32,000 nt of DNA from Poseidonibacter antarcticus (GCF_003667345.1 NZ_RCWF01000011.1:17951-49950), one strand, 5' to 3'; positions 22,442-32,000 are shown, counted from the stretch's first letter. Numbers and translations: made by a program. The notes: generated by a model from the sequence alone, not told the origin.

Positions 22442-23359
22442 ATGAATTATCAAACAATCTTAGAAGAAATACAAAAAGAAATTCAACCTTATTTCAAAAA
22501 TGGTAAAGTAGCTGATTATATTCCAGCACTAGCAAAAGTAGATCCAAATCAGTTTGCAATGTCAATTCAATTATTTGATGGAAGTCAATATAATATTGGA
22601 ACTGTTGATAATAAATTTTCAATTCAAAGTATTTCAAAAGTTTTTGCTTTTACTTTAGCTTTAAACCATTATGGGAAAGGCTTATATAAAAGAGTTGGTC
22701 ATGAACCATCAGGCGATCCTTTTAACTCACTAGTACAACTGGAATATGAAAATGGTATTCCTAGAAATCCTTTTATAAATGCAGGTGCAATTGTAACTAT
22801 TGATAGCCTTGTTTCACTTCATAGAAAAAATAGTTTTGAATATATTTTAAATTTTATAAAAAAAGTTTCAAATGATGATTCAATCACTTACGATGAAGAG
22901 ATTTTTAAATCAGAATTAAATCATGGATTTAGAAACTTTGCATTAATAAATATGATTAAAAGTTATAATAATATTTATAATCCAATAGATGATGTAATAG
23001 ATGCATATTTTAAACAATGTTCAATTATGATGACTCCTTGTCAACTTGCAAAAGCAATGTTATTTTTAGCAAATCATGGAGTAAACCCCTTAAATAATGA
23101 AAGAATTATCACAAATGAAAAAGCAAAGAGAATAAATTCTGTTATGCTTACATGTGGTCACTACGATGCATCAGGTGATTTTGCATACAAAGTTGGACTT
23201 CCAGGGAAAAGTGGCGTTGGTGGAGGAATTGTTGCGATTGTTCCTCAAAAAATGGCTATTTGTGTCTACTCTCCAAAATTAAATGCTCAAAGTAATTCAT
23301 ATATTGGAACAAAAGCATTAGAATTATTTACAACAAAGACTGGCTTATCAATTTTTTAA
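22442..23359 (+). CDS. glsA: glutaminase A
   Basis: GKVADYIPALA, QSISKVF (Ser-x-x-Lys) and LPGKSGVGGGI blocks; 305 aa. Confidence 0.9.
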   Translation: MNYQTILEEIQKEIQPYFKNGKVADYIPALAKVDPNQFAMSIQLFDGSQYNIGTVDNKFSIQSISKVFAFTLALNHYGKGLYKRVGHEPSGDPFNSLVQLEYENGIPRNPFINAGAIVTIDSLVSLHRKNSFEYILNFIKKVSNDDSITYDEEIFKSELNHGFRNFALINMIKSYNNIYNPIDDVIDAYFKQCSIMMTPCQLAKAMLFLANHGVNPLNNERIITNEKAKRINSVMLTCGHYDASGDFAYKVGLPGKSGVGGGIVAIVPQKMAICVYSPKLNAQSNSYIGTKALELFTTKTGLSIF

Positions 23360-23414
23360 TAATACTTGATAGCTTTTTTAGTATAATAATAAAAAATTAT
23401 AATTAAGGTAAATA

Positions 23415-24026
23415 ATGACTGCATTGGAAATAGCTGATTTTATAGGAATAATATCTTTTGCTTTAAGTGGATTTTTAATTGCAGTACATTGTAAACTTGA
23501 TATTTTAGGAGTATTTATCTCTTCATTTTTAACAGCTCTTGGTGGTGGAATGATTAGAGATGTCCTTGCAGATAGGACTCCTTACGTTTTTACAGATACC
23601 CTTCCTGTTATTTTAGTAATAGCAACGGTATTAATAGCTTTGTTATTTAAACTTCATAAAAGTGATGATATAGAAAGTAAAACTGCTTTTATAGTCTCTG
23701 ATGCAGTAGGATTAGTTTCATTTTCAATAACAGGTTCAATTATTGCAATTCAAAATGAATATAACTTTTTAGGTGTATTGATTTTAGCCTTTTTAACAGC
23801 AGTTGGAGGTGGGACAATTAGAGATATTTTAATAAATAGAGTTCCATCAATTCTAATATCAGAATTTTATGCAACGGTTGCGCTAATTGTAGGATTTATA
23901 GTTTATACCTTAGATATATTTGAAATGAGAACATTATTTACAGTATTAATTGTTTTTGTATTTGGCGTAGCCTTACGATTATTAGCATATTATAGAAAGT
24001 GGCATCTACCAACTTTATCTAAATGA
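23415..24026 (+). CDS. trimeric intracellular cation channel (TRIC/UPF0126, YadS-like) membrane protein
   Basis: Internal duplication with GGGMIRDVL and GGGTIRDIL glycine motifs; 7 TM pattern. Confidence 0.85.
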   Translation: MTALEIADFIGIISFALSGFLIAVHCKLDILGVFISSFLTALGGGMIRDVLADRTPYVFTDTLPVILVIATVLIALLFKLHKSDDIESKTAFIVSDAVGLVSFSITGSIIAIQNEYNFLGVLILAFLTAVGGGTIRDILINRVPSILISEFYATVALIVGFIVYTLDIFEMRTLFTVLIVFVFGVALRLLAYYRKWHLPTLSK

Positions 24027-24103
24027 TAATTATTATTATTTGTTTAACTTTCTGTTTACTATTTATAGCTACAATTCATCAATTTTTAAAATTAGGAGAA
24101 AAA

Positions 24104-24556
24104 ATGAAAAAAATTTTATTTACAGTATTATTATTTGTTGCAACATTTGCAAACGCTTTAAGTATTGGTGATTCTACACCTACGTTTGATATAAAAGATC
24201 AATTTGAGAAAGCTCACAAAATTAGTCCAGACTCTAAAACTATTTTAGTTGCAGGAGATAAAGGTACTAGTGAAATATTAAGAGATTATTTACTTACAAA
24301 AGATAAAGGTTTCTTAGAATCAAATAAATCAAATTATGTAGCAGATATTTCAGGAATGCCAAGTTTAATCGCAAAATGGTTTGCATTACCAAAAATGAAA
24401 AAATATCCATTCTCAATTCTTTTAGTTGATGAAGAACAAACTAAATCATTTACTAAAAAAGAAGATACTATCACAGTTTATACTTTAACTGATGGTAAAG
24501 TTTCTGATATTAAGTTTATTAAAACAGCTGAAGAATTAGCAGCAGTATTTAAATAA
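24104..24556 (+). CDS. hypothetical secreted/periplasmic protein
   Basis: TAGGAG RBS at 24093; signal peptide MKKILFTVLLFVATFANA; no family recognised. The 24023 start in the ORF track adds an implausible hydrophobic extension. Confidence 0.55.
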   Translation: MKKILFTVLLFVATFANALSIGDSTPTFDIKDQFEKAHKISPDSKTILVAGDKGTSEILRDYLLTKDKGFLESNKSNYVADISGMPSLIAKWFALPKMKKYPFSILLVDEEQTKSFTKKEDTITVYTLTDGKVSDIKFIKTAEELAAVFK

Positions 24557-24561
24557 ATTCT

Positions 24562-24591
24562 ATCTAGTCTATTTTTAGAAATAGGCTAGAT
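24562..24591. terminator. bidirectional hairpin between convergent genes
   Basis: ATCTAGTCTAT-(8 nt)-ATAGGCTAGAT, an 11-bp stem with one G-U position. Confidence 0.5.
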
Positions 24592-25169
24592 TAAGCTAAA
24601 AGCTTAACAAATGCCTCAATAATAGCTATACTTTCAAGCTCTTTGATTCTGTTTTCTAAAGAATCAACACTTTCACCATTATTTATTTTAAGCTCTTTTT
24701 TTAAAATGATTCTACCATCATCATATTTCTCATTTACAAAATGAATCGTAACACCTGATTTAGGCTCGTTATTTTTAATAATTGCTTCATGTACAAATCT
24801 TCCATACATTCCTTTGCCTCCATAAATTGAAGGTAAAAGTGCAGGATGTGTATTTACTATTCTTTCAGGAAACTGTGATATTAAAATAGTTCCAATCATT
24901 TTCATATAACCAGAACAGAATATATAATCACAGTTAAACTCTTTTAATAAATTTGATATTTTTTCATCAATATTTTCATTAGGGTATTTTTTTTCATTTA
25001 TTACAAAATTAGGTATTTGCATATCATTTGCTATATTTAAAACATTCGCATTACTATTATTGGAAATTACTACAACAACTTGTGCATCTAAAATCTTCTC
25101 TTCTATGGCTTTTTGTATTTTTTGAAAACCACTTCCATTATATGAAGCTAAAATACCTATTCTTTTCAT
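24591..25169 (-). CDS. purN: phosphoribosylglycinamide formyltransferase
   Basis: MKRIGILASYNGSG, INTHPALLP and SGVTIHFVNEKYDDG motifs; 192 aa. Confidence 0.88.
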   Translation of the reverse strand: MKRIGILASYNGSGFQKIQKAIEEKILDAQVVVVISNNSNANVLNIANDMQIPNFVINEKKYPNENIDEKISNLLKEFNCDYIFCSGYMKMIGTILISQFPERIVNTHPALLPSIYGGKGMYGRFVHEAIIKNNEPKSGVTIHFVNEKYDDGRIILKKELKINNGESVDSLENRIKELESIAIIEAFVKLLA

Positions 25170-25231
25170 TTTTAATATCCTATTTAATAATTGCGCGTGA
25201 TTATAACAGATTAAATATAAAAAACAATGAT

Positions 25232-26113
25232 TTATTTATCTTTCTTATTAATTAAAAATACACCAAAAAATATAAAAATAGTAGCTATAAAATCTATCAT
25301 CTTAATATCTTCACCAACAATAAAAAACCCAATAATTAGAGCAACAACAGGAGGAATATATGTAATAGAAGAGGCTTTTAATACACCTAGCTTTTCAATC
25401 ATATAATAGTATAAGATATAAGCTAGTCCAGTACCTAAAATACCTAATCCTACAACCAATCCTATAAAACTATGAGTATCTTGCCAAATGTTATTTATAC
25501 CTTTAAAATCTACTATTAAAAATAGAATAATTAAAGCACTTCCTAATTGATAAGTTGTTAAAGCTACTACATTAATTTTTAATGGCATAATAAATTTTTT
25601 AGCATAAACAAAAGAAGAACCAACACTTAATGATGCAATAAGTAAGTATAAAACACCTTCTATATTTGTATTTTCTAAGTTACTTGAAAATACTCCACTT
25701 ATTATTAAAACACCTAGAAATCCTAATAATACACCCAATAAAGCGAGCTTTGTAACTTTTTCTTCTTTTAAAAATATGCTAGCCATTAAAAAAGAAAAAA
25801 GTGGTATCGCCCCACTTAAAGCACCTGCAATTCCAGATAATAATAATGAAGAACCTTTTACATAACCAAAAAAGTAAATAACAGCTGCTAATAAGGACAT
25901 AACAACAAAATGTATTATATATTTTAAATCTTCAAATTTTAAAGCTTTTATATATAAAGCATAAAAAAATACTGGAATAAAACCAAATAAAACTCTATAA
26001 AAAACAACTTGCATAGGTTCAATAAACTCTGCTGCCATCTTCATATAAATAAAATTACTTCCCCAAATAATACCTAAAGACCAAAAAGCTAATATAGGAA
26101 TATATTTCATCAT
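25232..26113 (-). CDS. DMT superfamily (EamA-like) transporter
   Basis: 10-TM pattern in two EamA halves; 293 aa. Confidence 0.8.
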   Translation of the reverse strand: MMKYIPILAFWSLGIIWGSNFIYMKMAAEFIEPMQVVFYRVLFGFIPVFFYALYIKALKFEDLKYIIHFVVMSLLAAVIYFFGYVKGSSLLLSGIAGALSGAIPLFSFLMASIFLKEEKVTKLALLGVLLGFLGVLIISGVFSSNLENTNIEGVLYLLIASLSVGSSFVYAKKFIMPLKINVVALTTYQLGSALIILFLIVDFKGINNIWQDTHSFIGLVVGLGILGTGLAYILYYYMIEKLGVLKASSITYIPPVVALIIGFFIVGEDIKMIDFIATIFIFFGVFLINKKDK

Positions 26114-26115
26114 TA

Positions 26116-26583
26116 TTATCTAATCCTTTGAGAGTGTGTAAGTGCAATTGCAATTGCATCTGTAATATCTAAGGGTTTTATCTCTTTTTTAATTCCAAGT
26201 AATTTTTTTACCATAAAAGCAACTTGAGTTTTATCCGCTTTTCCATTGCCCGTAACTGCTTTTTTAACTTGTAAAGGAGTATATTCAGCAAAATTTCCAA
26301 ATTTTTGTAAAATTTTTAATGATATAGCTCCTCTAAATTGAGCTAACTTAATTACTGTCTTTGGATTAAAGGCATAAAACATATCTTCAATTGAAACTTC
26401 ATTAATAACATGTTTGTCAAAAATAAGATCAAAACCTTCTGTCATTTCCACAATTTGTTCTTGTAAAATTTTTGTTTTTATTTTAATTAAACCAGCTTCA
26501 ATAAGTCTAGTTTGAGAACCATTTTTTTCAATTATTGCATAGCCACAATTTCTTGTTCCAGGGTCAATTCCTAATATTTTCAC
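26116..26583 (-). CDS. ruvC: crossover junction endodeoxyribonuclease RuvC
   Basis: [17 protein letters not shown] and [12 protein letters not shown] catalytic blocks; GTG start at 26583. Confidence 0.92.
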
Positions 26584-26695
26584 GTATATTCACTTTTAAT
26601 TTATTTTTTATTCACATCAGTATAATAGCCATATAATGGTATGTTTTAGATAAATTTTCACTTAATGTGAACAATCTATTCACTACTTATTCACT
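26576..26695. other. DnaA-box cluster (oriC1-like) next to ruvC
   Basis: Seven TTCAC-core 9-mers: ATTTTCACG 26576-84, ATATTCACT 26586-94, TTATTCACA 26608-16, ATTTTCACT 26654-62, TTGTTCACA (minus strand) 26666-74, CTATTCACT 26676-84, TTATTCACT 26687-95. Confidence 0.7.
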
Positions 26696-26757
26696 ATGTG
26701 TAAAACTAGTTCTTATTGAAAATCATAAATATTTTATAACTTATTAATTTACTAGTT

Positions 26758-26780
26758 TTTAAGATTTTTTTTGACATAAT
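26758..26780 (+). promoter_or_regulatory. promoter-like repeat copy 1 (T-tract + TG + CATAAT)
   Basis: TTTAAGATTTTTTTTGACATAAT, near-identical to copy 2 about 73 nt downstream; a TATAAT follows at 26784-26789. Confidence 0.4.
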
Positions 26781-26831
26781 TAGTATAATCTTTATATATT
26801 CATAATTTTATAAATCATTTATTTATTTTAA

Positions 26832-26853
26832 TTTAAGATTTTTTTGACATAAT
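26832..26853 (+). promoter_or_regulatory. promoter-like repeat copy 2, probable promoter of the 79-aa peptide gene
   Basis: TTTAAGATTTTTTTGACATAAT has a T-tract, TG and a -10-like CATAAT, as in Campylobacterota promoters; it lies 45 nt upstream of ATG 26898, followed by hairpin GAGTA-aaattc-TACTC and an AAAGGA RBS. Confidence 0.45.
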
Positions 26854-26897
26854 AACACAGAGTAAAATTCTACTCATAAAAAGTTAAAGGATGTAAA

Positions 26898-27137
26898 ATG
26901 TTAGGAAATCTTTTAGGTGGGTTATTAAGTCCATTATTAAGTGTTGTTTCTGGTTTACTTGGAACTGTTGTTAATTTAGTAAGTGGTATACTTGGTGGTG
27001 CTCTTGGTACTGTTGGTGACCTTGTTGGTGGATTAACTGATACTGTAGCTGACGTTGCAGACACTAATATTAATGTTAATATTGATATCAATGGTGTTCA
27101 ATCTCCTTCAGATGCTGATGTTGGTGGTTTAGCATAA
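26898..27137 (+). CDS. 79-aa glycine/leucine/valine-rich acidic peptide, candidate type I secretion substrate
   Basis: AAAGGA RBS 6 nt upstream; own terminator; 15 Gly, 15 Leu, 12 Val, 7 Asp; no Lys/Arg/His/Glu/Cys/aromatics; directly upstream of the T1SS genes. Confidence 0.6.
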   Translation: MLGNLLGGLLSPLLSVVSGLLGTVVNLVSGILGGALGTVGDLVGGLTDTVADVADTNINVNIDINGVQSPSDADVGGLA

Positions 27138-27140
27138 TTT

Positions 27141-27169
27141 AAAAAGTAAGTCTTAACGACTTACTTTTT
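27141..27169 (+). terminator. rho-independent terminator/attenuator after the peptide gene
   Basis: AAAAAGTAAGTC-ttaac-GACTTACTTTTT, perfect 12-bp complementarity including the A5/T5 flanks, 3 nt after the stop. Confidence 0.8.
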
Positions 27170-27196
27170 AATTGTTACTAAAATACAAGGGAAATT

Positions 27197-28906
27197 TTGT
27201 CACAAAATAAAAATACTTCTGAACTCAAAAGCGTACTCAAACAATCTAAAAAATTATTCTTTACTATAGGCTTATTTAGTTTTTTAATTAATATACTTAT
27301 GTTAGTACCTCCCATTTATATGCTTCAAATATACGATAGAGTTCTTTCAAGTAAGAGTAAAGATACACTTTTCATGTTAACACTTATTGTTGTAGTATTA
27401 TTTATTACAATGGCTTTATTAGAAATTATTAGATCAAAAATATTAATAAAAATTGGTAATAGAATTGATAATAATTTAAGTAATAGAATATTTGATTCTC
27501 TATTTCAATTAGAAAAAGTAAATCCTAATAAGGCTAGTTCTTCATATATAAGTAATTTAACTCAAATGAGACAATTTTTAACAGGTAGTGGTGTATTTGC
27601 ATTTTTTGATGCCCCATGGATTACAATTTATTTATTAATTCTTTTTTTATTCCATCCTATGTTCGGATATTTCGCACTATTTACAATATTTATTTTATTA
27701 ATAATCACCTTAGTAAATGAAATTACTACAAAACAAAAAATAAATATAGCAACAGTAGATAATCTTTCTTCAAATAATTATCTAGATTCTTCTTTAAAAA
27801 ATGCAGATGTTGTCAATACAATGGGAATGAAAAAAGATATTAAATACATATGGCAAAAAAAATATTATAGTTTTTTAAGAGCACAAAATGATGCAAGTGA
27901 TAGTGCTAGTGTTTGGACTAATCTTTCAAAAAATTTTAGATTATTAGCTCAATCTTTAATCCTAGGACTAGGTGCTTATCTTGCAATTGATCAAGAAATA
28001 ACTCCAGGTATGATGATAGCAGCATCTATAATATTAGGAAGAACCTTAGCACCACTTGATTTAATCATATCAAGTTGGAGACACTTTATTACTTATCGTT
28101 CTAGTTATAAAAGAATTGAATCTTTATTGCATGACTTTCCAAAAAAAGAGCAATTGACATCAATTCCTATTACAAAAGCAGAACTATTATTAGAAAATAT
28201 GGTACTTACTCCTCCTTTAGGTGATGCCCCAACAATAAAAGGTATATCTTTACAAATTAATGAAGGTGATGTTGTTGCAATTATTGGTAATAGTGGAGCA
28301 GGAAAATCAACTTTAGTAAAAGGTATTCTTGATATATGGCCTATTTCTGAAGGTAAAGTTAAAATTGATAATATAGATATACAATTATTAAATAAAGAAG
28401 AAATTGGCTCAAGTATTGGGTATCTTCCACAAGATATAGAACTTTTTGAAGGTACAATTAGTCAAAATATTTCAAGATTTAAAGAATTAAATTCTGATAA
28501 AGTTATTAAAGCAGCAAAAATTGCTGGTGTCCATGAAATGATAGTAAAATTTCCAAAAGGCTATGATAGTAGTATTGGAAGTGGAGGAACTAAACTTTCA
28601 GGAGGACAAAGACAAAGAATAGGTCTTGCTAGAGCAATTTATAATAATCCACGATTAATTATTTTAGATGAACCAAACTCAAATCTAGATAAAGCAGGAG
28701 AAGAAGCTTTGCTTAATTGTATAAAAGTTTTAAAAGAAAATTTAACAACTGTTTTAATAATTACACATAAAGAAAATATTTTAGAAATTACTAATAAAAT
28801 AGCAATACTTGAAGATGGGACATTAAAAGAATTTAATGAAACAAATATAATATTAAATAATATAGATTTTTTTAATTTAGATGATGGCAACAATGAAAGA
28901 AGTTAA
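27197..28906 (+). CDS. type I secretion system permease/ATPase (PrtD/HasD class, no C39 or CLD N-domain)
   Basis: TTG start. The N-terminus goes straight into the TM region (FSFLINILMLVPPIYMLQIYDRVL). Walker A GNSGAGKST, signature LSGGQRQRIGLARA, Walker B LIILDEPNSNLD. Confidence 0.9.
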   Translation: MSQNKNTSELKSVLKQSKKLFFTIGLFSFLINILMLVPPIYMLQIYDRVLSSKSKDTLFMLTLIVVVLFITMALLEIIRSKILIKIGNRIDNNLSNRIFDSLFQLEKVNPNKASSSYISNLTQMRQFLTGSGVFAFFDAPWITIYLLILFLFHPMFGYFALFTIFILLIITLVNEITTKQKINIATVDNLSSNNYLDSSLKNADVVNTMGMKKDIKYIWQKKYYSFLRAQNDASDSASVWTNLSKNFRLLAQSLILGLGAYLAIDQEITPGMMIAASIILGRTLAPLDLIISSWRHFITYRSSYKRIESLLHDFPKKEQLTSIPITKAELLLENMVLTPPLGDAPTIKGISLQINEGDVVAIIGNSGAGKSTLVKGILDIWPISEGKVKIDNIDIQLLNKEEIGSSIGYLPQDIELFEGTISQNISRFKELNSDKVIKAAKIAGVHEMIVKFPKGYDSSIGSGGTKLSGGQRQRIGLARAIYNNPRLIILDEPNSNLDKAGEEALLNCIKVLKENLTTVLIITHKENILEITNKIAILEDGTLKEFNETNIILNNIDFFNLDDGNNERS

Positions 28907-30185
28907 TAAAGCACCAGATGAGAATGCATCAAAAATAGTTAGATTTGGATTTACTCTTATATTAATTGTTTTTATTTTTTTAGGGGGTTGGATGTCTTAT
29001 GCACCTCTTGCCATCCATTCTGTAGCAATGGGAAAAGTTTCTGCTGATTATAATAAAAAAAGAATTCAACATTTAGAAAGTGGTATTATAAAAAAAATTT
29101 ATGTAAAAGATGGTGATTTAGTAGAAAAAGGACAAATACTTATACAACTTGATGATACACAAATAAAAGCTAAAATTGAATCATTAAAATTTCAATATGA
29201 AAGTATGCTAGCTTTACAATCAAGACTTTTTGCTCAAAAAAATAATAAAAAAGAACTTGTTTTAAATGAAGAAGTTAAGAATAAAAATATTATTAAAGAG
29301 CAAAAATACCTTTTTAAAACTATTACAGAGTCAATTAAAGAAAATAAAAAAGTTATTTCTAAACAAATTTTACAACTCAAAAATCAAATTGCAGGTTTAA
29401 ATTCTACATTAAAAAGTAAAAAATATATGCAAGTATCCATAACAGAAGAGATACGTGAACTTGAAAAATTATATGCAAAAAGATTAATTAACAAGATTAA
29501 TTTAAGAAAATTACAAAGAGAAGAGTCATCATTATTAGGTGAAATCATAAATATTGAAGAAGAAAAAACTAGACTAAAAGAAAAAATAAATGAGTTAAAA
29601 ACTAAAAATGTATTAATTGAAAAAGATTATAAAAAAGATACATTAAAAGAATTAACGACAATATCTCCAAAAATTTCTGAAGTAAGATTAAAAATTGATG
29701 CCCTAGAGGATACCCTAAATAAAACAACTATTTATTCTCCTGCAGATGGGCATATTGTAGGACTTACAAATTATACTCAAGATTCTATAATTAAAGCAGG
29801 TTCAGATATATTAGAAGTAGTTCCAAATGATTCAAATCTTATAATTCTTGCTCAAATAAAATCTACAGATATAGATAAAATTCGAACAGGTTTAACTGCA
29901 AGTATAAAATTCTCAGCATATAATACTCAAAAATCACATTCTATAGATGGAGAAATCACTTATGTTTCTGCTGATAGTTTTATTGACTCAAATACAAATG
30001 AATCTTTTTATGAAGTAAAAGCTAAATTAAGTAAAAAAGGTATTGAACAAATTAAATCTTATAATTTTAATTTAGTAGCTGGTATGCCAGCTGAAATGAT
30101 GATAAAAACAGGAGAAAGAACTGTATTAAGTTATATGCTTAAGCCTCTATTAGATAGGTTTAACAGGAGTTTTAATGAAGAATAA
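28881..30185 (+). CDS. HlyD-family type I secretion membrane fusion protein
   Basis: N-terminal TM, GKVSADYNKKRIQHLESGIIKKIYVKDGDLVEKGQILIQLDD lipoyl-like block, long coiled coil, C-terminal beta-barrel (PADGHIVGL...GMPAEMMIKTGERTVLSYMLKPL). Overlaps the ABC gene; the start could be 28893. Confidence 0.88.
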   Translation: MMATMKEVNKAPDENASKIVRFGFTLILIVFIFLGGWMSYAPLAIHSVAMGKVSADYNKKRIQHLESGIIKKIYVKDGDLVEKGQILIQLDDTQIKAKIESLKFQYESMLALQSRLFAQKNNKKELVLNEEVKNKNIIKEQKYLFKTITESIKENKKVISKQILQLKNQIAGLNSTLKSKKYMQVSITEEIRELEKLYAKRLINKINLRKLQREESSLLGEIINIEEEKTRLKEKINELKTKNVLIEKDYKKDTLKELTTISPKISEVRLKIDALEDTLNKTTIYSPADGHIVGLTNYTQDSIIKAGSDILEVVPNDSNLIILAQIKSTDIDKIRTGLTASIKFSAYNTQKSHSIDGEITYVSADSFIDSNTNESFYEVKAKLSKKGIEQIKSYNFNLVAGMPAEMMIKTGERTVLSYMLKPLLDRFNRSFNEE

Positions 30186-31497
30186 TTTTTTAATTTTATT
30201 CTCAATTTTTTTTATTCATTTAAACTTATATAGTAGCGAAACTTTAACTTTTTCTAAAGCATATAGCCTTTCTTTAAAAAATTCTGAAAAAGTAAAGTCT
30301 TTAGATTATAAATTAAAAGCAAGTTATGAAAATATTGTTCAAGCTAAATCGAAAAGATATCCTGAAATAAATCTTTATTCATCATATACTCAAAATGATT
30401 ATAAATTTGTAAATAAATCAATTAAACAAATGAAACAAAAAGTTAGAGATTATAGTGTTATATTACAACAACCTATTTTTGACAAAACAATTAATTCTCA
30501 AGTAAAGGTTGAAAACTCCAAATTCAAATCCCTTAATGCTGAAATAAAGGGAATGAAACAAGATTTGGCAAATGATATATTAAAAATTTACCTTTCACTA
30601 ATTGAATCTAAAAATAAAATAAAAATGTTATTGCTTTATAAACAAAACCTTAAATACAAAATAGATTTATTAGAAGAACAATATTCAATGAATTTATCTA
30701 CTCAAACTGAAGTTTTAGAAATAAAAATTGAATTAAATCAAGTAAATGTAGATTTAGAGAAAGAAAAACTTTTATATAAAGTAAATAAAAAAAAATTACA
30801 AACTTTAATGGGTGATAATCGAAATTTTAGAGTTCCTGATTTAAATAATTTAGAATATATATCAAATAATTTAGTAAAATTAAAAAAAATAGTAAATACA
30901 AACAATGAAATTTATTCAAATTTACAAATAAAAAAATTAATGAATATTGTTAAAATGTATAAATATCAAGTCAAGAGAAATAGATACAACCATTTACCAA
31001 AAATTAATTTAAGTCTAGAATATACAAAAAATGTTGCTGTAGATAATAATTTAAGTTTTGATTCTTCATTTGATGAAGATAAAGAAATAGGTTTAAATAT
31101 TGTTATACCCCTATTTAAAGGTGGTTATTATGATTCTTTAACAACTGCTTCAAAATTAAATGTAAAAGCATCACAAAAAGAATTAAATAGTTTAATAAAT
31201 CAATTAAAATCAGAATATAAAGAAAATAAAACAACATTATTATGGACTATTAAATCAGTAAAATTATATACAGAATCTTTAGAAACAGCTATTTTATCAA
31301 AAGATAGTATTCAAAAAGAATATAAATATGGTGTAAAGAGTATAATAGATTTATATGATGCAAAATATAAAATATTTAAAATAAAAGAGGAATATATTAA
31401 AAATATATTTACTTTAGTAGACACATATTTATCATTATTAATCCTAACAAATAATTTTGAAGATCTAAAATCTATAGATCTAATCTTAAAAGATTAA
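30175..31497 (+). CDS. TolC-family outer membrane channel
   Basis: Signal peptide, two OEP repeats (LTFSKAYSLSLKNSEKVKSL..., ...IIDLYDAKYKIFKIKEEYI); CAGGAG RBS; overlaps the HlyD gene by 11 nt. Confidence 0.8.
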   Translation: MKNNFLILFSIFFIHLNLYSSETLTFSKAYSLSLKNSEKVKSLDYKLKASYENIVQAKSKRYPEINLYSSYTQNDYKFVNKSIKQMKQKVRDYSVILQQPIFDKTINSQVKVENSKFKSLNAEIKGMKQDLANDILKIYLSLIESKNKIKMLLLYKQNLKYKIDLLEEQYSMNLSTQTEVLEIKIELNQVNVDLEKEKLLYKVNKKKLQTLMGDNRNFRVPDLNNLEYISNNLVKLKKIVNTNNEIYSNLQIKKLMNIVKMYKYQVKRNRYNHLPKINLSLEYTKNVAVDNNLSFDSSFDEDKEIGLNIVIPLFKGGYYDSLTTASKLNVKASQKELNSLINQLKSEYKENKTTLLWTIKSVKLYTESLETAILSKDSIQKEYKYGVKSIIDLYDAKYKIFKIKEEYIKNIFTLVDTYLSLLILTNNFEDLKSIDLILKD

Positions 31498-31514
31498 ATC
31501 AATTAAAAACTAGC

Positions 31515-31546
31515 TTATATCTAAATTTATAATTAATTAGATATAA
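31515..31546. repeat. perfect 10-bp inverted repeat between the TolC-like gene and dnaA
   Basis: TTATATCTAA-(12 nt)-TTAGATATAA; the right arm overlaps a TATAAT at 31542-31547 that could be the dnaA -10. Confidence 0.5.
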
Positions 31547-31582
31547 TATTTACTATTTATAAATAAAAAGAGTTAATAGTAT

Positions 31583-32000
31583 ATGACAAGTAAAGATTTC
31601 CTAACAATTATTCAAAAAGAGGCTACATCTATTGATTTCGATAGATATCTAAAGCAACTTGTGTATAAAAAGATATCATCTGATAATAATATTGCTATTT
31701 TTGAAGTTTCAAATAAATATATTGCTTCATGGATTAAAAGTAAGTATACAGGTGTAATACAACACTGTTTTGAAATATATGATGGAACAAAACCGACAAT
31801 TGAGATAAAAATTGCTGGTGAAAAAAAATCAAAAAGAGAGATTATTAAAGAACAAATTGAAAATAAAACTGCAGAAAGTACAATATTAAATCCATCATAT
31901 ACATTTGATTCATTTATTGTTGGACCTTCTAATCAAATGGCCTATAATGCCTCATTAGCAGTATCTAATAAACCAGGAATTCAATATAATCCTTTATTTA
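31583..32000 (+). CDS. dnaA: chromosomal replication initiator DnaA, N-terminal part (runs off the window)
   Basis: My translation from ATG 31583 is [26 protein letters not shown]...[37 protein letters not shown], the domain I/II and start of the AAA+ domain signature (YTFDxFVxGxSN...YNPLF). Confidence 0.9.

Follow-up and report, generated by a model that had tools for sequence, protein, structure and literature searches.

The locus described here raises the question of why a very small, glycine-rich peptide should be encoded directly ahead of a complete type I secretion system (T1SS), as well as of whether it could be the cargo of that system. The locus lies in a stretch of 32,000 nucleotides (nt) of Poseidonibacter antarcticus (Arcobacteraceae; GCF_003667345.1, NZ_RCWF01000011.1:17951-49950), called the window in what follows and numbered from its first letter; its ATP-binding cassette (ABC) protein is identical to WP_205588719.1 and its RuvC to WP_121628443.1. 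Four genes, for the peptide, the ABC protein, an HlyD-type membrane fusion protein (MFP) and a TolC-type outer-membrane protein (OMP), occupy the whole interval between ruvC, which lies directly upstream on the opposite strand, and dnaA, which starts 86 nt past the end of the TolC gene. The best reading appears to be that of a leaderless microcin/Cdz-like peptide, which would be exported uncleaved, by means of a C-terminal signal, through a dedicated PrtD-type T1SS; export by this T1SS, the absence of cleavage and the biological activity of the peptide are what we infer from the sequence.

The peptide gene, its core and its tail

The product of the gene, MLGNLLGGLLSPLLSVVSGLLGTVVNLVSGILGGALGTVGDLVGGLTDTVADVADTNINVNIDINGVQSPSDADVGGLA, has a mass of 7540 Da and contains 15 Gly, 15 Leu, 12 Val and 7 Asp, with no Lys, Arg, His, Glu, Cys, Phe, Trp or Tyr. 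An earlier note on this DNA had given the open reading frame (ORF), its length of 79 amino acids (aa) and these counts, and the agreement is exact; its description of the product as cation-free holds for the window peptide but not for the family, as one orthologue carries one Arg. The gene is unannotated in the P. antarcticus reference genome, because the exact 79-aa sequence is absent from ~15 billion predicted proteins, though the flanking proteins carry WP_ accessions.

The earlier note had called for a search for homologues and for the ratio of non-synonymous to synonymous change (dN/dS) across them. Two relatives were obtained from 1.84 billion cluster representatives by searching these exhaustively with phmmer and a third by a profile search, and further orthologues by scanning the T1SS loci to which the ABC protein had led as query; a word-indexed search in which the peptide was the only query gave zero matches, the peptide itself included. 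For the peptide and its relatives Pfam and NCBIfam returned only noise at E values up to 10 (HAP, YidB and the E492 microcin, the last at E 0.29), and Rfam gave no match in 26400-27400. In all, seven distinct versions of 76-87 aa were found in Arcobacteraceae genomes and metagenomes, each possessing an intact frame, an AGGA-type ribosome-binding site (RBS) and the shared start M(L/F)G(N/S)LLGxLLxP. They are the window peptide and that of a near-identical strain variant (L088/L168, with N57T and N59D), three further versions (L081/P0001; L082-85/P0002; P0003, from an 'Aliarcobacter sp.' metagenome-assembled genome, MAG) and those of two Halarcobacter MAGs (L001, 5679-5918; L002, 5700-5939).

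Between the two Halarcobacter versions the proportion of synonymous differences (pS) is 0.187 and that of non-synonymous differences (pN) 0.036, with a dN/dS of 0.17, and judged by this pattern the peptide gene is real and under purifying selection. When the window is compared with L081, identity is 51% for the peptide (dN 0.40, dN/dS ~0.8), against 85, 81, 73 and 93% for ABC, MFP, OMP and RuvC (dN 0.06-0.15, dN/dS 0.09-0.19); in other words, it evolves ~4.5 times faster than the ABC protein (dN 0.088), and most of the change lies past residue ~28. The window and L168/L088 peptide genes have two differences, both non-synonymous and both in the tail, which are too few for a selection test. By these measures the peptide is constrained yet fast-evolving, a pattern common among secreted effectors.

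Besides the peptide, no conserved small ORF that could hide an immunity function was found in the ruvC-dnaA interval of any lineage, in keeping with the earlier note, to which no immunity gene had been evident; this negative covers the ruvC-dnaA interval, and an immunity gene could be located elsewhere in the genome. The only conceivable 'hidden' membrane peptide of the locus is a hydrophobic mini-ORF of 25-38 aa, with a TTG or ATG start, in the +1 frame of the tail-coding region (window 27055-27132; L081 6515-6631; L001 5839-5928), which was rejected as evidence of immunity, as it has no RBS and is probably a by-product of GAT/GTT/AAT codons. Also rejected was an antisense ORF of 73 aa (26870-27091), absent in L001 and a by-product of GGT/GTT codons.

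The core of the peptide consists of the units LLSPLLSVVSG, LLGTVVNLVSG, ILGGALGTVGD and LVGGLTDTVAD. In the window, identity autocorrelation reaches 0.26 and 0.25 at lags 11 and 22, respectively, against 0.23 for the 95th percentile of the shuffled maximum, and the peaks, at lags 4, 7, 11, 15 and 22, are stronger in Halarcobacter. The helical moment of Gly, Ser and Ala is maximal at 97 degrees, that is, an 11/3 period, and was matched by 5, 1 and 7 of 1000 shuffles in three of four lineages (5/1000 for the window). The N-terminal 40 residues are hydrophobic (hydropathy index, GRAVY, 1.54), and the claim that they carry no charge is borne out, the first charged residue being the acidic D41. AlphaFold2 (AF2), from a 4-sequence alignment, predicts a single helix for residues 2-58, with a confidence (pLDDT) of 74-84 in the first 30 residues. 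Thus, on this model, the core would form one long hydrophobic helix along which the small residues make up an unbroken face, so that it may broadly be called a glycine zipper. The glycine-zipper quasi-repeats of the earlier note are real and have a period of 11 residues, but strict GxxxGxxxG motifs are few, and a small-residue stripe of 11/3 period is found instead; an invariant P12 lies within the hydrophobic region.

In the tail, Asp and Asn alternate with Val and Ile with a period of 167-180 degrees, which is that of a beta-strand, and the AF2 prediction is of disorder. The last 50 residues of the window peptide are 68% LDAVTSIF with 1 KHPMWC residue, the family values being 68-78% and 0-3, and the corresponding figure for HlyA is 66% LDAVTSIF (PMC3417381). 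Type I C-terminal signals comprise ~30-60 residues and are acidic, unstructured, rich in LDAVTSIF and poor in KHPMWC; composition and predicted disorder fit such signals, and the tail may function as one. Within it an (I/V)NGV(Q/D) motif is conserved; an RTX motif was looked for in the peptide, with no match to GG.G.D and none in Pfam (HemolysinCabind). The Halarcobacter orthologues (L001, L002) end in ..NGVDDCGTCC, with three Cys among the last five residues, which may be a cross-linking or metal-binding site; Cys is wholly absent from the orthologues of the other lineages, and many of the betaproteobacterial relatives described below end with a single Cys (..GGSCR, ..NSCQ).

The profile search also retrieved peptides of 69-73 aa from Azonexus and relatives, in which a double-glycine leader (MAIQELNKTEIEAVSGG; MAIQELNxxEIxxVSGG) is followed by LDLGGLLGGILNPVLGLVGGLLTPVVGLVxGLVGTVTGLLGGLLGG, and a second profile search gave 84 leader-bearing peptides from Betaproteobacteria and a few other Proteobacteria, some of them named 'Bacteriocin' in UniRef. 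In three of the four loci examined (L086, L087, L170) the leader-type genes, in many cases tandem paralogues, are directly upstream of genes for MFP, Peptidase_C39-ABC and OEP, the fourth copy being an orphan. This leader-type family, with at least 84 members, falls outside Pfam and NCBIfam, and among the genes called beside it none is obviously an immunity gene; in the loci of Azonexus and Piscinibacter (L086 7409-8216; L170 4984-6195) there are three tandem paralogous genes for double-glycine glycine-zipper peptides.

The Arcobacteraceae profile scores 37-40 bits on the leader-bearing peptides, against at most ~10 for 1000 composition-preserving shuffles, and hhalign joins the two family alignments over 45 columns (Prob 97.9%, E 3.9e-13), an 11-residue repeat being common to the window peptide and the betaproteobacterial family. 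Repeats inflate profile scores, and reliance was placed on profile comparisons with shuffle controls over pairwise BLASTP. Since hhalign sets window residues 2-47 against precursor positions 21-65, starting four residues past the GG cleavage site, the window peptide would be the counterpart of the mature core found in leader-type, bacteriocin-like peptides. Compared with these relatives it has no leader, bears an additional acidic tail of ~30 residues and stands beside a different class of exporter. The functional analogy to the leader-type peptides holds under common descent or convergence alike.

The exporter and the question of its cargo

Against TIGR01842 (type_I_sec_PrtD; cut-off 510.15) the ABC protein reaches 703.6 bits, over model positions 1-543 of 544, and its best match in PDB is PrtD of Aquifex aeolicus (5L22, E 7e-158), residues 5-556 being collinear with 5-558. 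In the models of HlyB, LssB and bacteriocin-ABC its matches do not begin before positions 126-144. Because of the collinearity with 5L22 and of this late start (~135) in the HlyB and LssB models, it has no C39 or C39-like domain, as the earlier note had maintained, and no Pfam match to Peptidase_C39 was obtained. The FxT and W-R motifs described for T1SS ABC proteins (PMC8277102) are represented by T1SS-specific kink motifs in transmembrane helices (TM) 3 and 6: QFLTG aligns with FLT of PrtD (FxT, TM3) and SSWRH with GWRQ (W-R/Q, TM6). On these alignments the ABC protein genuinely belongs to the PrtD/AprD/HasD class. The three transporter genes, PrtD-type ABC, HlyD and TolC-like, do overlap as had been claimed, by 26 nt (ABC and MFP) and by 11 nt (MFP and OMP). 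The adaptor orthologue of L081 bears HH_AprE and Beta-barrel_AprE, and the OMP, with a strong OEP match and a TIGR01844 score of 126.5 bits, under the cut-off of 225.15, is therefore a divergent member of the TolC family.

Between the peptide gene and the transporter genes stands a hairpin, the sole terminator-like site in 26000-32000, which the earlier note had placed at 27141-27169 and which proved two nucleotides longer on either side (27139-27171). Its RNA fold of -16 kcal/mol corresponds to z = -6.2 against shuffles, and post-stop hairpins are also found in L081, L082, L001 and L002, with z across the four lineages of -3.7 to -8.7 and stems that differ by lineage (GTAAGTC/GACTTAC, GTAAGTAGG/CCTACTTAC, AGTAGGTCTAA/TTAGACCTACT). 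In this spacer the window and L168 differ by three substitutions, each of them within the hairpin loop (27153-27157). A clear U-tract follows in the window and L081 and a poor one elsewhere, for which reason the hairpin is read as a leaky terminator (attenuator) and/or a 3' stabiliser. From the hairpin to the ABC start there are 25 nt, which leave no room for a separate promoter, so that the transporter genes would be largely expressed by read-through. The ABC start codon is TTG in five loci (window, L001, L002, L081, L088), and this start, together with the overlapping transporter genes, would fit a low and coupled expression of the transporter.

The order ruvC-peptide-ABC-MFP-OMP-dnaA is the same in every sufficiently long locus (window, L001, L002, L081, L168; those of L082 and L088 are partial, with incomplete flanks), and the peptide gene is always the first of its four-gene unit. 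Among the 160 PrtD-type ABC proteins closest to that of the window, in genomes and metagenomes, the peptide was found beside those of Arcobacteraceae only. The next-closest PrtD-type systems, those of Sulfurimonas, Thiomicrospira and Sulfuricurvum (ABC identity 51-60%), have different neighbours and no peptide, from which it follows that the peptide and this T1SS lineage co-occur strictly; the T1SS relatives of Sulfurimonas, Thiomicrospira and Betaproteobacteria have other neighbours (SapC-like and others). No other candidate cargo was found between ruvC and dnaA or within ~10 kb on each side, some 40 kb of the genome being covered.

If we accept that the peptide travels through this exporter, the following sequence of events may be proposed. 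The mRNA of the peptide would be abundant and would mostly end at the hairpin, read-through providing a small supply of transporter. The peptide, acidic and with no Lys or Arg, would be unfolded in the cytosol, and its C-terminal tail would be recognised at the basic window by which substrates enter the PrtD-type ABC protein; in PrtD the entry window and the 'bowl' are highly basic, and the channel is too narrow for folded substrates (PMC8277102). The uncleaved peptide would then be threaded in one step through ABC, MFP and TolC and, outside the cell, its 50-residue helix would self-associate through the continuous Gly/Ser face, either to insert into and permeabilise the membranes of neighbours, in the manner of microcins and Cdz, or to aggregate on the surface of the producer; for both outcomes CdzC and MccAB1 provide precedents. 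That the peptide is a dedicated T1SS cargo with a C-terminal signal seems to us probable, if by no means assured. Within this reading the choice between an antagonistic and a structural role leans only a little towards the former, and the balance is close because no lineage has an immunity gene and the cassette occupies a fixed site of the core genome.

Several observations weigh against a secreted, microcin-like cargo and must be set beside the evidence in its favour: (i) with no immunity gene and no conserved small membrane ORF in the ruvC-dnaA interval, the locus would be atypical for a self-toxic bacteriocin; (ii) pairwise BLASTP with composition adjustment gives weak similarity to the leader-type peptides, in several registers (E 0.02 to 3e-4), and, as this similarity rests on low-complexity 11-mer repeats, the two families could have converged on the same repeat; (iii) the confidence of the AF2 model is modest (mean pLDDT 66.5); (iv) the extreme C-terminus is not conserved (..DVGGLA, ..VDSIA, ..VELA, ..CGTCC), though it is important in characterised PrtD-type substrates; (v) the hairpins of L082, L001 and L002 have no clear U-tract; (vi) and finally, the search for another cargo, RTX-type cargo included, was limited to the ~40 kb mentioned.

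The same peptide, exported by the same T1SS, could serve as a self-assembling component of the surface or matrix, such as a hydrophobic coat, an amyloid-like biofilm scaffold or a surfactant, with no antibacterial action and no need of immunity. This agrees with the absence of an immunity-like ORF from all orthologous loci, with a cassette that is fixed next to dnaA in several genera and does not form part of a mobile, strain-variable island, and with the small-residue face of the helix, which favours self-association; in addition, MccAB1 shows that Gly-rich microcins may double as amyloid biofilm scaffolds (PMC13188072), and CdzC forms surface aggregates (PMC5380434). However, a peptide that evolves fast in comparison with its transporter and housekeeping neighbours is commoner among antagonistic effectors than among structural proteins, its double-glycine-leader relatives belong to the bacteriocin-type export class, with the name 'Bacteriocin' given to some in UniRef, and immunity genes can be hidden or located elsewhere; such a purely structural role seems to us unlikely, although it deserves serious consideration.

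It is a good deal harder to believe that the peptide is no cargo at all. It would then be either a small subunit of the transporter, embedded in the membrane and with an accessory or regulatory function like that of AcrZ towards AcrB, or an unrelated neighbour of a system whose real substrate, such as an RTX protein, has its gene elsewhere. In hydrophobicity its first 40 residues would suffice for a membrane-spanning segment, the linkage of T1SS substrates to their transporter is not universal, and the coverage of the genome is that given above; but with neither Lys nor Arg the peptide does not comply with the positive-inside rule, its tail is acidic and predicted to be disordered, its evolution is 4-5 times faster than that of the ABC and MFP, the proteins that it would need to co-fold with, and a hairpin of its own implies a stoichiometric excess over the transporter. 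Moreover, its core matches peptides that are clearly cargo of peptidase-containing ABC transporters (PCAT), and it co-occurs strictly with this T1SS and is absent from the nearest relatives of the latter. As to whether the ORF might be a chance frame in an AT-rich, regulatory and origin-proximal spacer upstream of the operon, the failure of the NCBI annotation to call it, the low complexity of its product, the antisense ORF of 73 aa and a cluster of DnaA boxes 200 bp upstream could all be cited in support. Nevertheless, this would hardly explain seven versions in which a frame of similar length, the start context and the RBS are kept intact at ~50% amino-acid divergence, the excess of pS over pN in Halarcobacter, the loss of the antisense ORF in L001, a locally GC-rich codon pattern (GGT/GTT) that contrasts with the flanking spacer of 25% GC, or the prediction of the orthologues by metagenome gene callers, and a frame of this kind is very improbable. 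The preferred reading is thus still that of a dedicated cargo.

The locus, its expression signals and its neighbours

The features of the locus are collected in Table 1.

Table 1. Features of the peptide/T1SS locus, in positions of the window
Feature	Coordinates	Strand	Remarks
Promoter region	26731-26858	+	Tandem ~74-bp duplication (26731-26771 / 26805-45); putative promoter
Putative 5' untranslated region (UTR)	26860-26897	+	Small conserved stem and RBS; start of transcription placed from the -10 position
Structural gene for the 79-aa, 7.5-kDa peptide	26898-27137	+	ORF and product; unannotated in RefSeq
Core, residues 1-50	26898-27047	+	11-residue repeats (LLxPLLxVVSG type); Gly/Ser/Ala on one helix face
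Acidic tail, residues 51-79 (ADVADTNINVNIDINGVQSPSDADVGGLA)	27048-27134	+	Proposed uncleaved C-terminal T1SS signal
Post-stop hairpin	27139-27171	+	14 pairs, T-run after; begins 2 nt past the stop codon
ABC permease/ATPase, PrtD type, 569 aa	27197-28906	+	TIGR01842; TTG start; no N-terminal C39 or C39-like domain
HlyD/AprE-type periplasmic adaptor (MFP)	28881-30185	+	TIGR01843, 328.8 bits (cut-off 208.65); Pfam HlyD_3
TolC-family outer-membrane factor	30175-31497	+	Pfam OEP, E 1.1e-42, two stretches

Each copy of the duplication in the promoter region ends in TTTTTTTGACATAAT (26766-26780 and 26839-26853). In the proximal copy, cATAAT (26848-26853) is preceded by TGn, the two together (26845-26853) being likely to form an extended -10 box; this fits better than a classical -35/-10 promoter, which was rejected, as only 13 nt separate TTGACA from TAAAAT. 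The ATAAT of this copy is invariant in the window, L088, L081 and L082, and apart from this -10 box the lineages share no promoter element. Read as TTGACA-18-TATATT, the distal copy reaches a score of 11/12. The duplication, which may give the peptide gene two tandem promoters, is found only in the strains of the window, L088 and L168, and is missing in L081, the relative with 85% identity in ABC. In the 5' UTR, the stem is GAGTA-AAATTC-TACTC (26860-26875), and the RBS, described as good in the earlier note, is AAAGGA (26886-26891), 6 nt ahead of the ATG; both AAAGGA and an AGTAA..TACT element are kept in L088, L081 and L082.

With regard to the surroundings, dnaA, dnaN and gyrB are located downstream of the cassette. 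The composition gives no sign of a recent horizontal acquisition, which was rejected, the GC content being ~25% throughout. A gene for an EamA-family transporter of 293 aa (25232-26113, minus strand) lies between purN and ruvC, as also in L168; it is missing from that position in L081, and the Halarcobacter loci hold a different gene there, of 410 aa. As this site differs between lineages, the flank upstream of ruvC is variable and the peptide/T1SS cassette fixed. Between the window (22442-31583) and L168, a metagenomic near-relative, the T1SS cassette has 4-9 differing sites per kb, against 14-43 in the upstream housekeeping genes (glutaminase, purN and others), and is thus better conserved than its flank, possibly as a result of recent recombination or of a sweep. 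The nearest T1SS relatives outside Arcobacteraceae (L003-L010 and L046, of Sulfurimonas, Thiomicrospira, Hydrogenovibrio and Sulfuricurvum; ABC 51-60%) are flanked by a conserved protein of ~150 aa, a SapC-like protein, a protein of ~470 aa and another of 69-129 aa with the repeat 'IDGxxYxxxDLSxxA..'.

Beside the start of ruvC there is a same-strand cluster of DnaA-box-like sites (26576-26705), with six WTTCAC cores in 117 bp; five of the seven perfect matches to HTWTTCACW, the DnaA-box consensus of Arcobacter butzleri, in the 32-kb window fall at 26586-26695, on one strand, and the boxes are conserved in L081, L082, L001 and L002. The usual arrangement in Epsilonproteobacteria is ruvC-oriC1-dnaA-oriC2-dnaN (PMC5043019). 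Here the 4.9-kb peptide/T1SS cassette separates the oriC1-like cluster from dnaA, so that a bipartite origin would have to loop out ~6 kb instead of ~1.3 kb.

Comparison with known systems

In the literature on Arcobacter T1SS, on leaderless or C-terminal-signal microcins and on glycine-zipper T1SS cargo, no description of such a system was found. The current classification of T1SS associates peptides of <10 kDa with a C39-peptidase ABC protein and an N-terminal leader, and C-terminal signals with much larger proteins (PMC8277102). The locus could therefore represent a new class of T1SS cargo, namely a leaderless glycine-zipper peptide of ~7.5 kDa, the smallest natural PrtD-type substrate, with an acidic signal of ~30 residues, in which a leader and PCAT would have been exchanged for a tail and a PrtD-type exporter, and which would be invisible to annotation and to leader-based pipelines; we hold this wider proposal to be evenly poised between true and false. 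The earlier note had spoken of an undescribed class of very small cargo, and to the extent that no curated family contains the peptide and that its core matches bacteriocin-like peptides at an hhalign probability of 97.9% the idea stands; as a variant of the microcin/Cdz theme, on the other hand, it is not without precedent. If the proposal is true, the core of a cargo and its secretion signal would be exchangeable modules, and a minimal natural C-terminal signal of ~30 residues would be useful for studies of PrtD-type recognition and for the engineering of peptide secretion. As it has no immunity gene, the locus would also be a test case of whether glycine-zipper peptides are primarily weapons or building blocks of surfaces and biofilms.

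The class II microcins and other double-glycine-leader peptides, including the unnamed betaproteobacterial family of Azonexus, Dechloromonas, Piscinibacter and others, resemble the window peptide in being small (<10 kDa), Gly-rich and hydrophobic and in having their gene beside an ABC/MFP/OMP exporter. An example of PCAT export is MccV with CvaAB-TolC. In contrast, the window peptide has no G[GAS] leader of 15-25 residues, and none of the M..E(L/I)..(I/V)..(V)SGG type is present in it; it starts with MLGNLLGG, where the mature peptide begins, and has an extra acidic tail of ~30 residues. The adjacent ABC protein has no C39 domain and so is no PCAT, there is no adjacent immunity gene between ruvC and dnaA, and the order is peptide-ABC-MFP-OMP, whereas leader-type loci have peptide(s)-MFP-PCAT-OMP. 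Microcin discovery pipelines key on the N-terminal signal (PMC12219008) and for this reason would not find the window peptide; given that they need such a signal and that the gene is unannotated in RefSeq, similar cargos ahead of 'orphan' T1SS operons may be escaping notice on a wide scale.

In Caulobacter crescentus, the Cdz system consists of the glycine-zipper proteins CdzC and CdzD, exported by the CdzAB T1SS (PMC5380434). These proteins (84-86 aa), likened to the window peptide by their published description and not by alignment, are also small and dominated by Gly and small hydrophobic residues, with extended glycine-zipper regions, a tendency to aggregate, a polar or charged C-terminal end and dependence on a T1SS, which in the window peptide would be the PrtD-type one. 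Cdz-like peptides have been defined, among other features, by a length of 60-151 residues and a secretion leader ending in G[G/A/S] (PMC5380434); the Arcobacteraceae family falls within this range of length (76-87 aa) and has no such leader. As to the zipper itself, the small-residue stripe has an 11/3 period and strict motifs are few, the invariant P12 is inside the hydrophobic region, and the C-terminal region is charged but ~30 residues long. Cdz is, furthermore, a two-protein toxin with an immunity gene, cdzI, and no linked TolC, whereas the present locus has a single peptide, a linked OMP and no immunity gene. Taken as a whole, the locus would act in the manner of a class II microcin or of Cdz, yet fails the defining features of both, which are the leader, the PCAT and the adjacent immunity gene.

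In its exporter the locus resembles instead the PrtDEF, AprDEF and HasDEF systems, which likewise have a PrtD-type ABC protein, an AprE-type adaptor and a dedicated OMP, with the substrate gene ahead of the transporter genes, and the acidic, LDAVTSIF-rich and predicted-disordered C-terminus of the candidate substrate is also of their kind. They export metalloproteases, lipases and HasA, whose C-terminal signals are left uncleaved. In hlyCABD-type operons a terminator that separates the toxin gene from the genes for export produces polarity, and the structural genes of bacteriocins also have terminators after them; a stable hairpin right after the structural gene, with the transporter next, would here too yield more mRNA for cargo than for transporter, if read-through occurs as proposed. 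No RfaH/ops-type antitermination element turned up, although no search was aimed at one. The known PrtD-type substrates are folded, of roughly 19-60 kDa or more, many of them with RTX repeats (PMC8277102, PMC3034196), and the candidate of the window differs from them in being a repeat peptide of 7.5 kDa, which has neither a GGxGxD motif nor an enzyme or binding domain and whose extreme C-terminus is not conserved. The comparison would thus suggest one cargo core served by two modes of T1SS, with a cleaved N-terminal leader and a PCAT in the one case and an uncleaved C-terminal signal and a PrtD-type exporter in the other.

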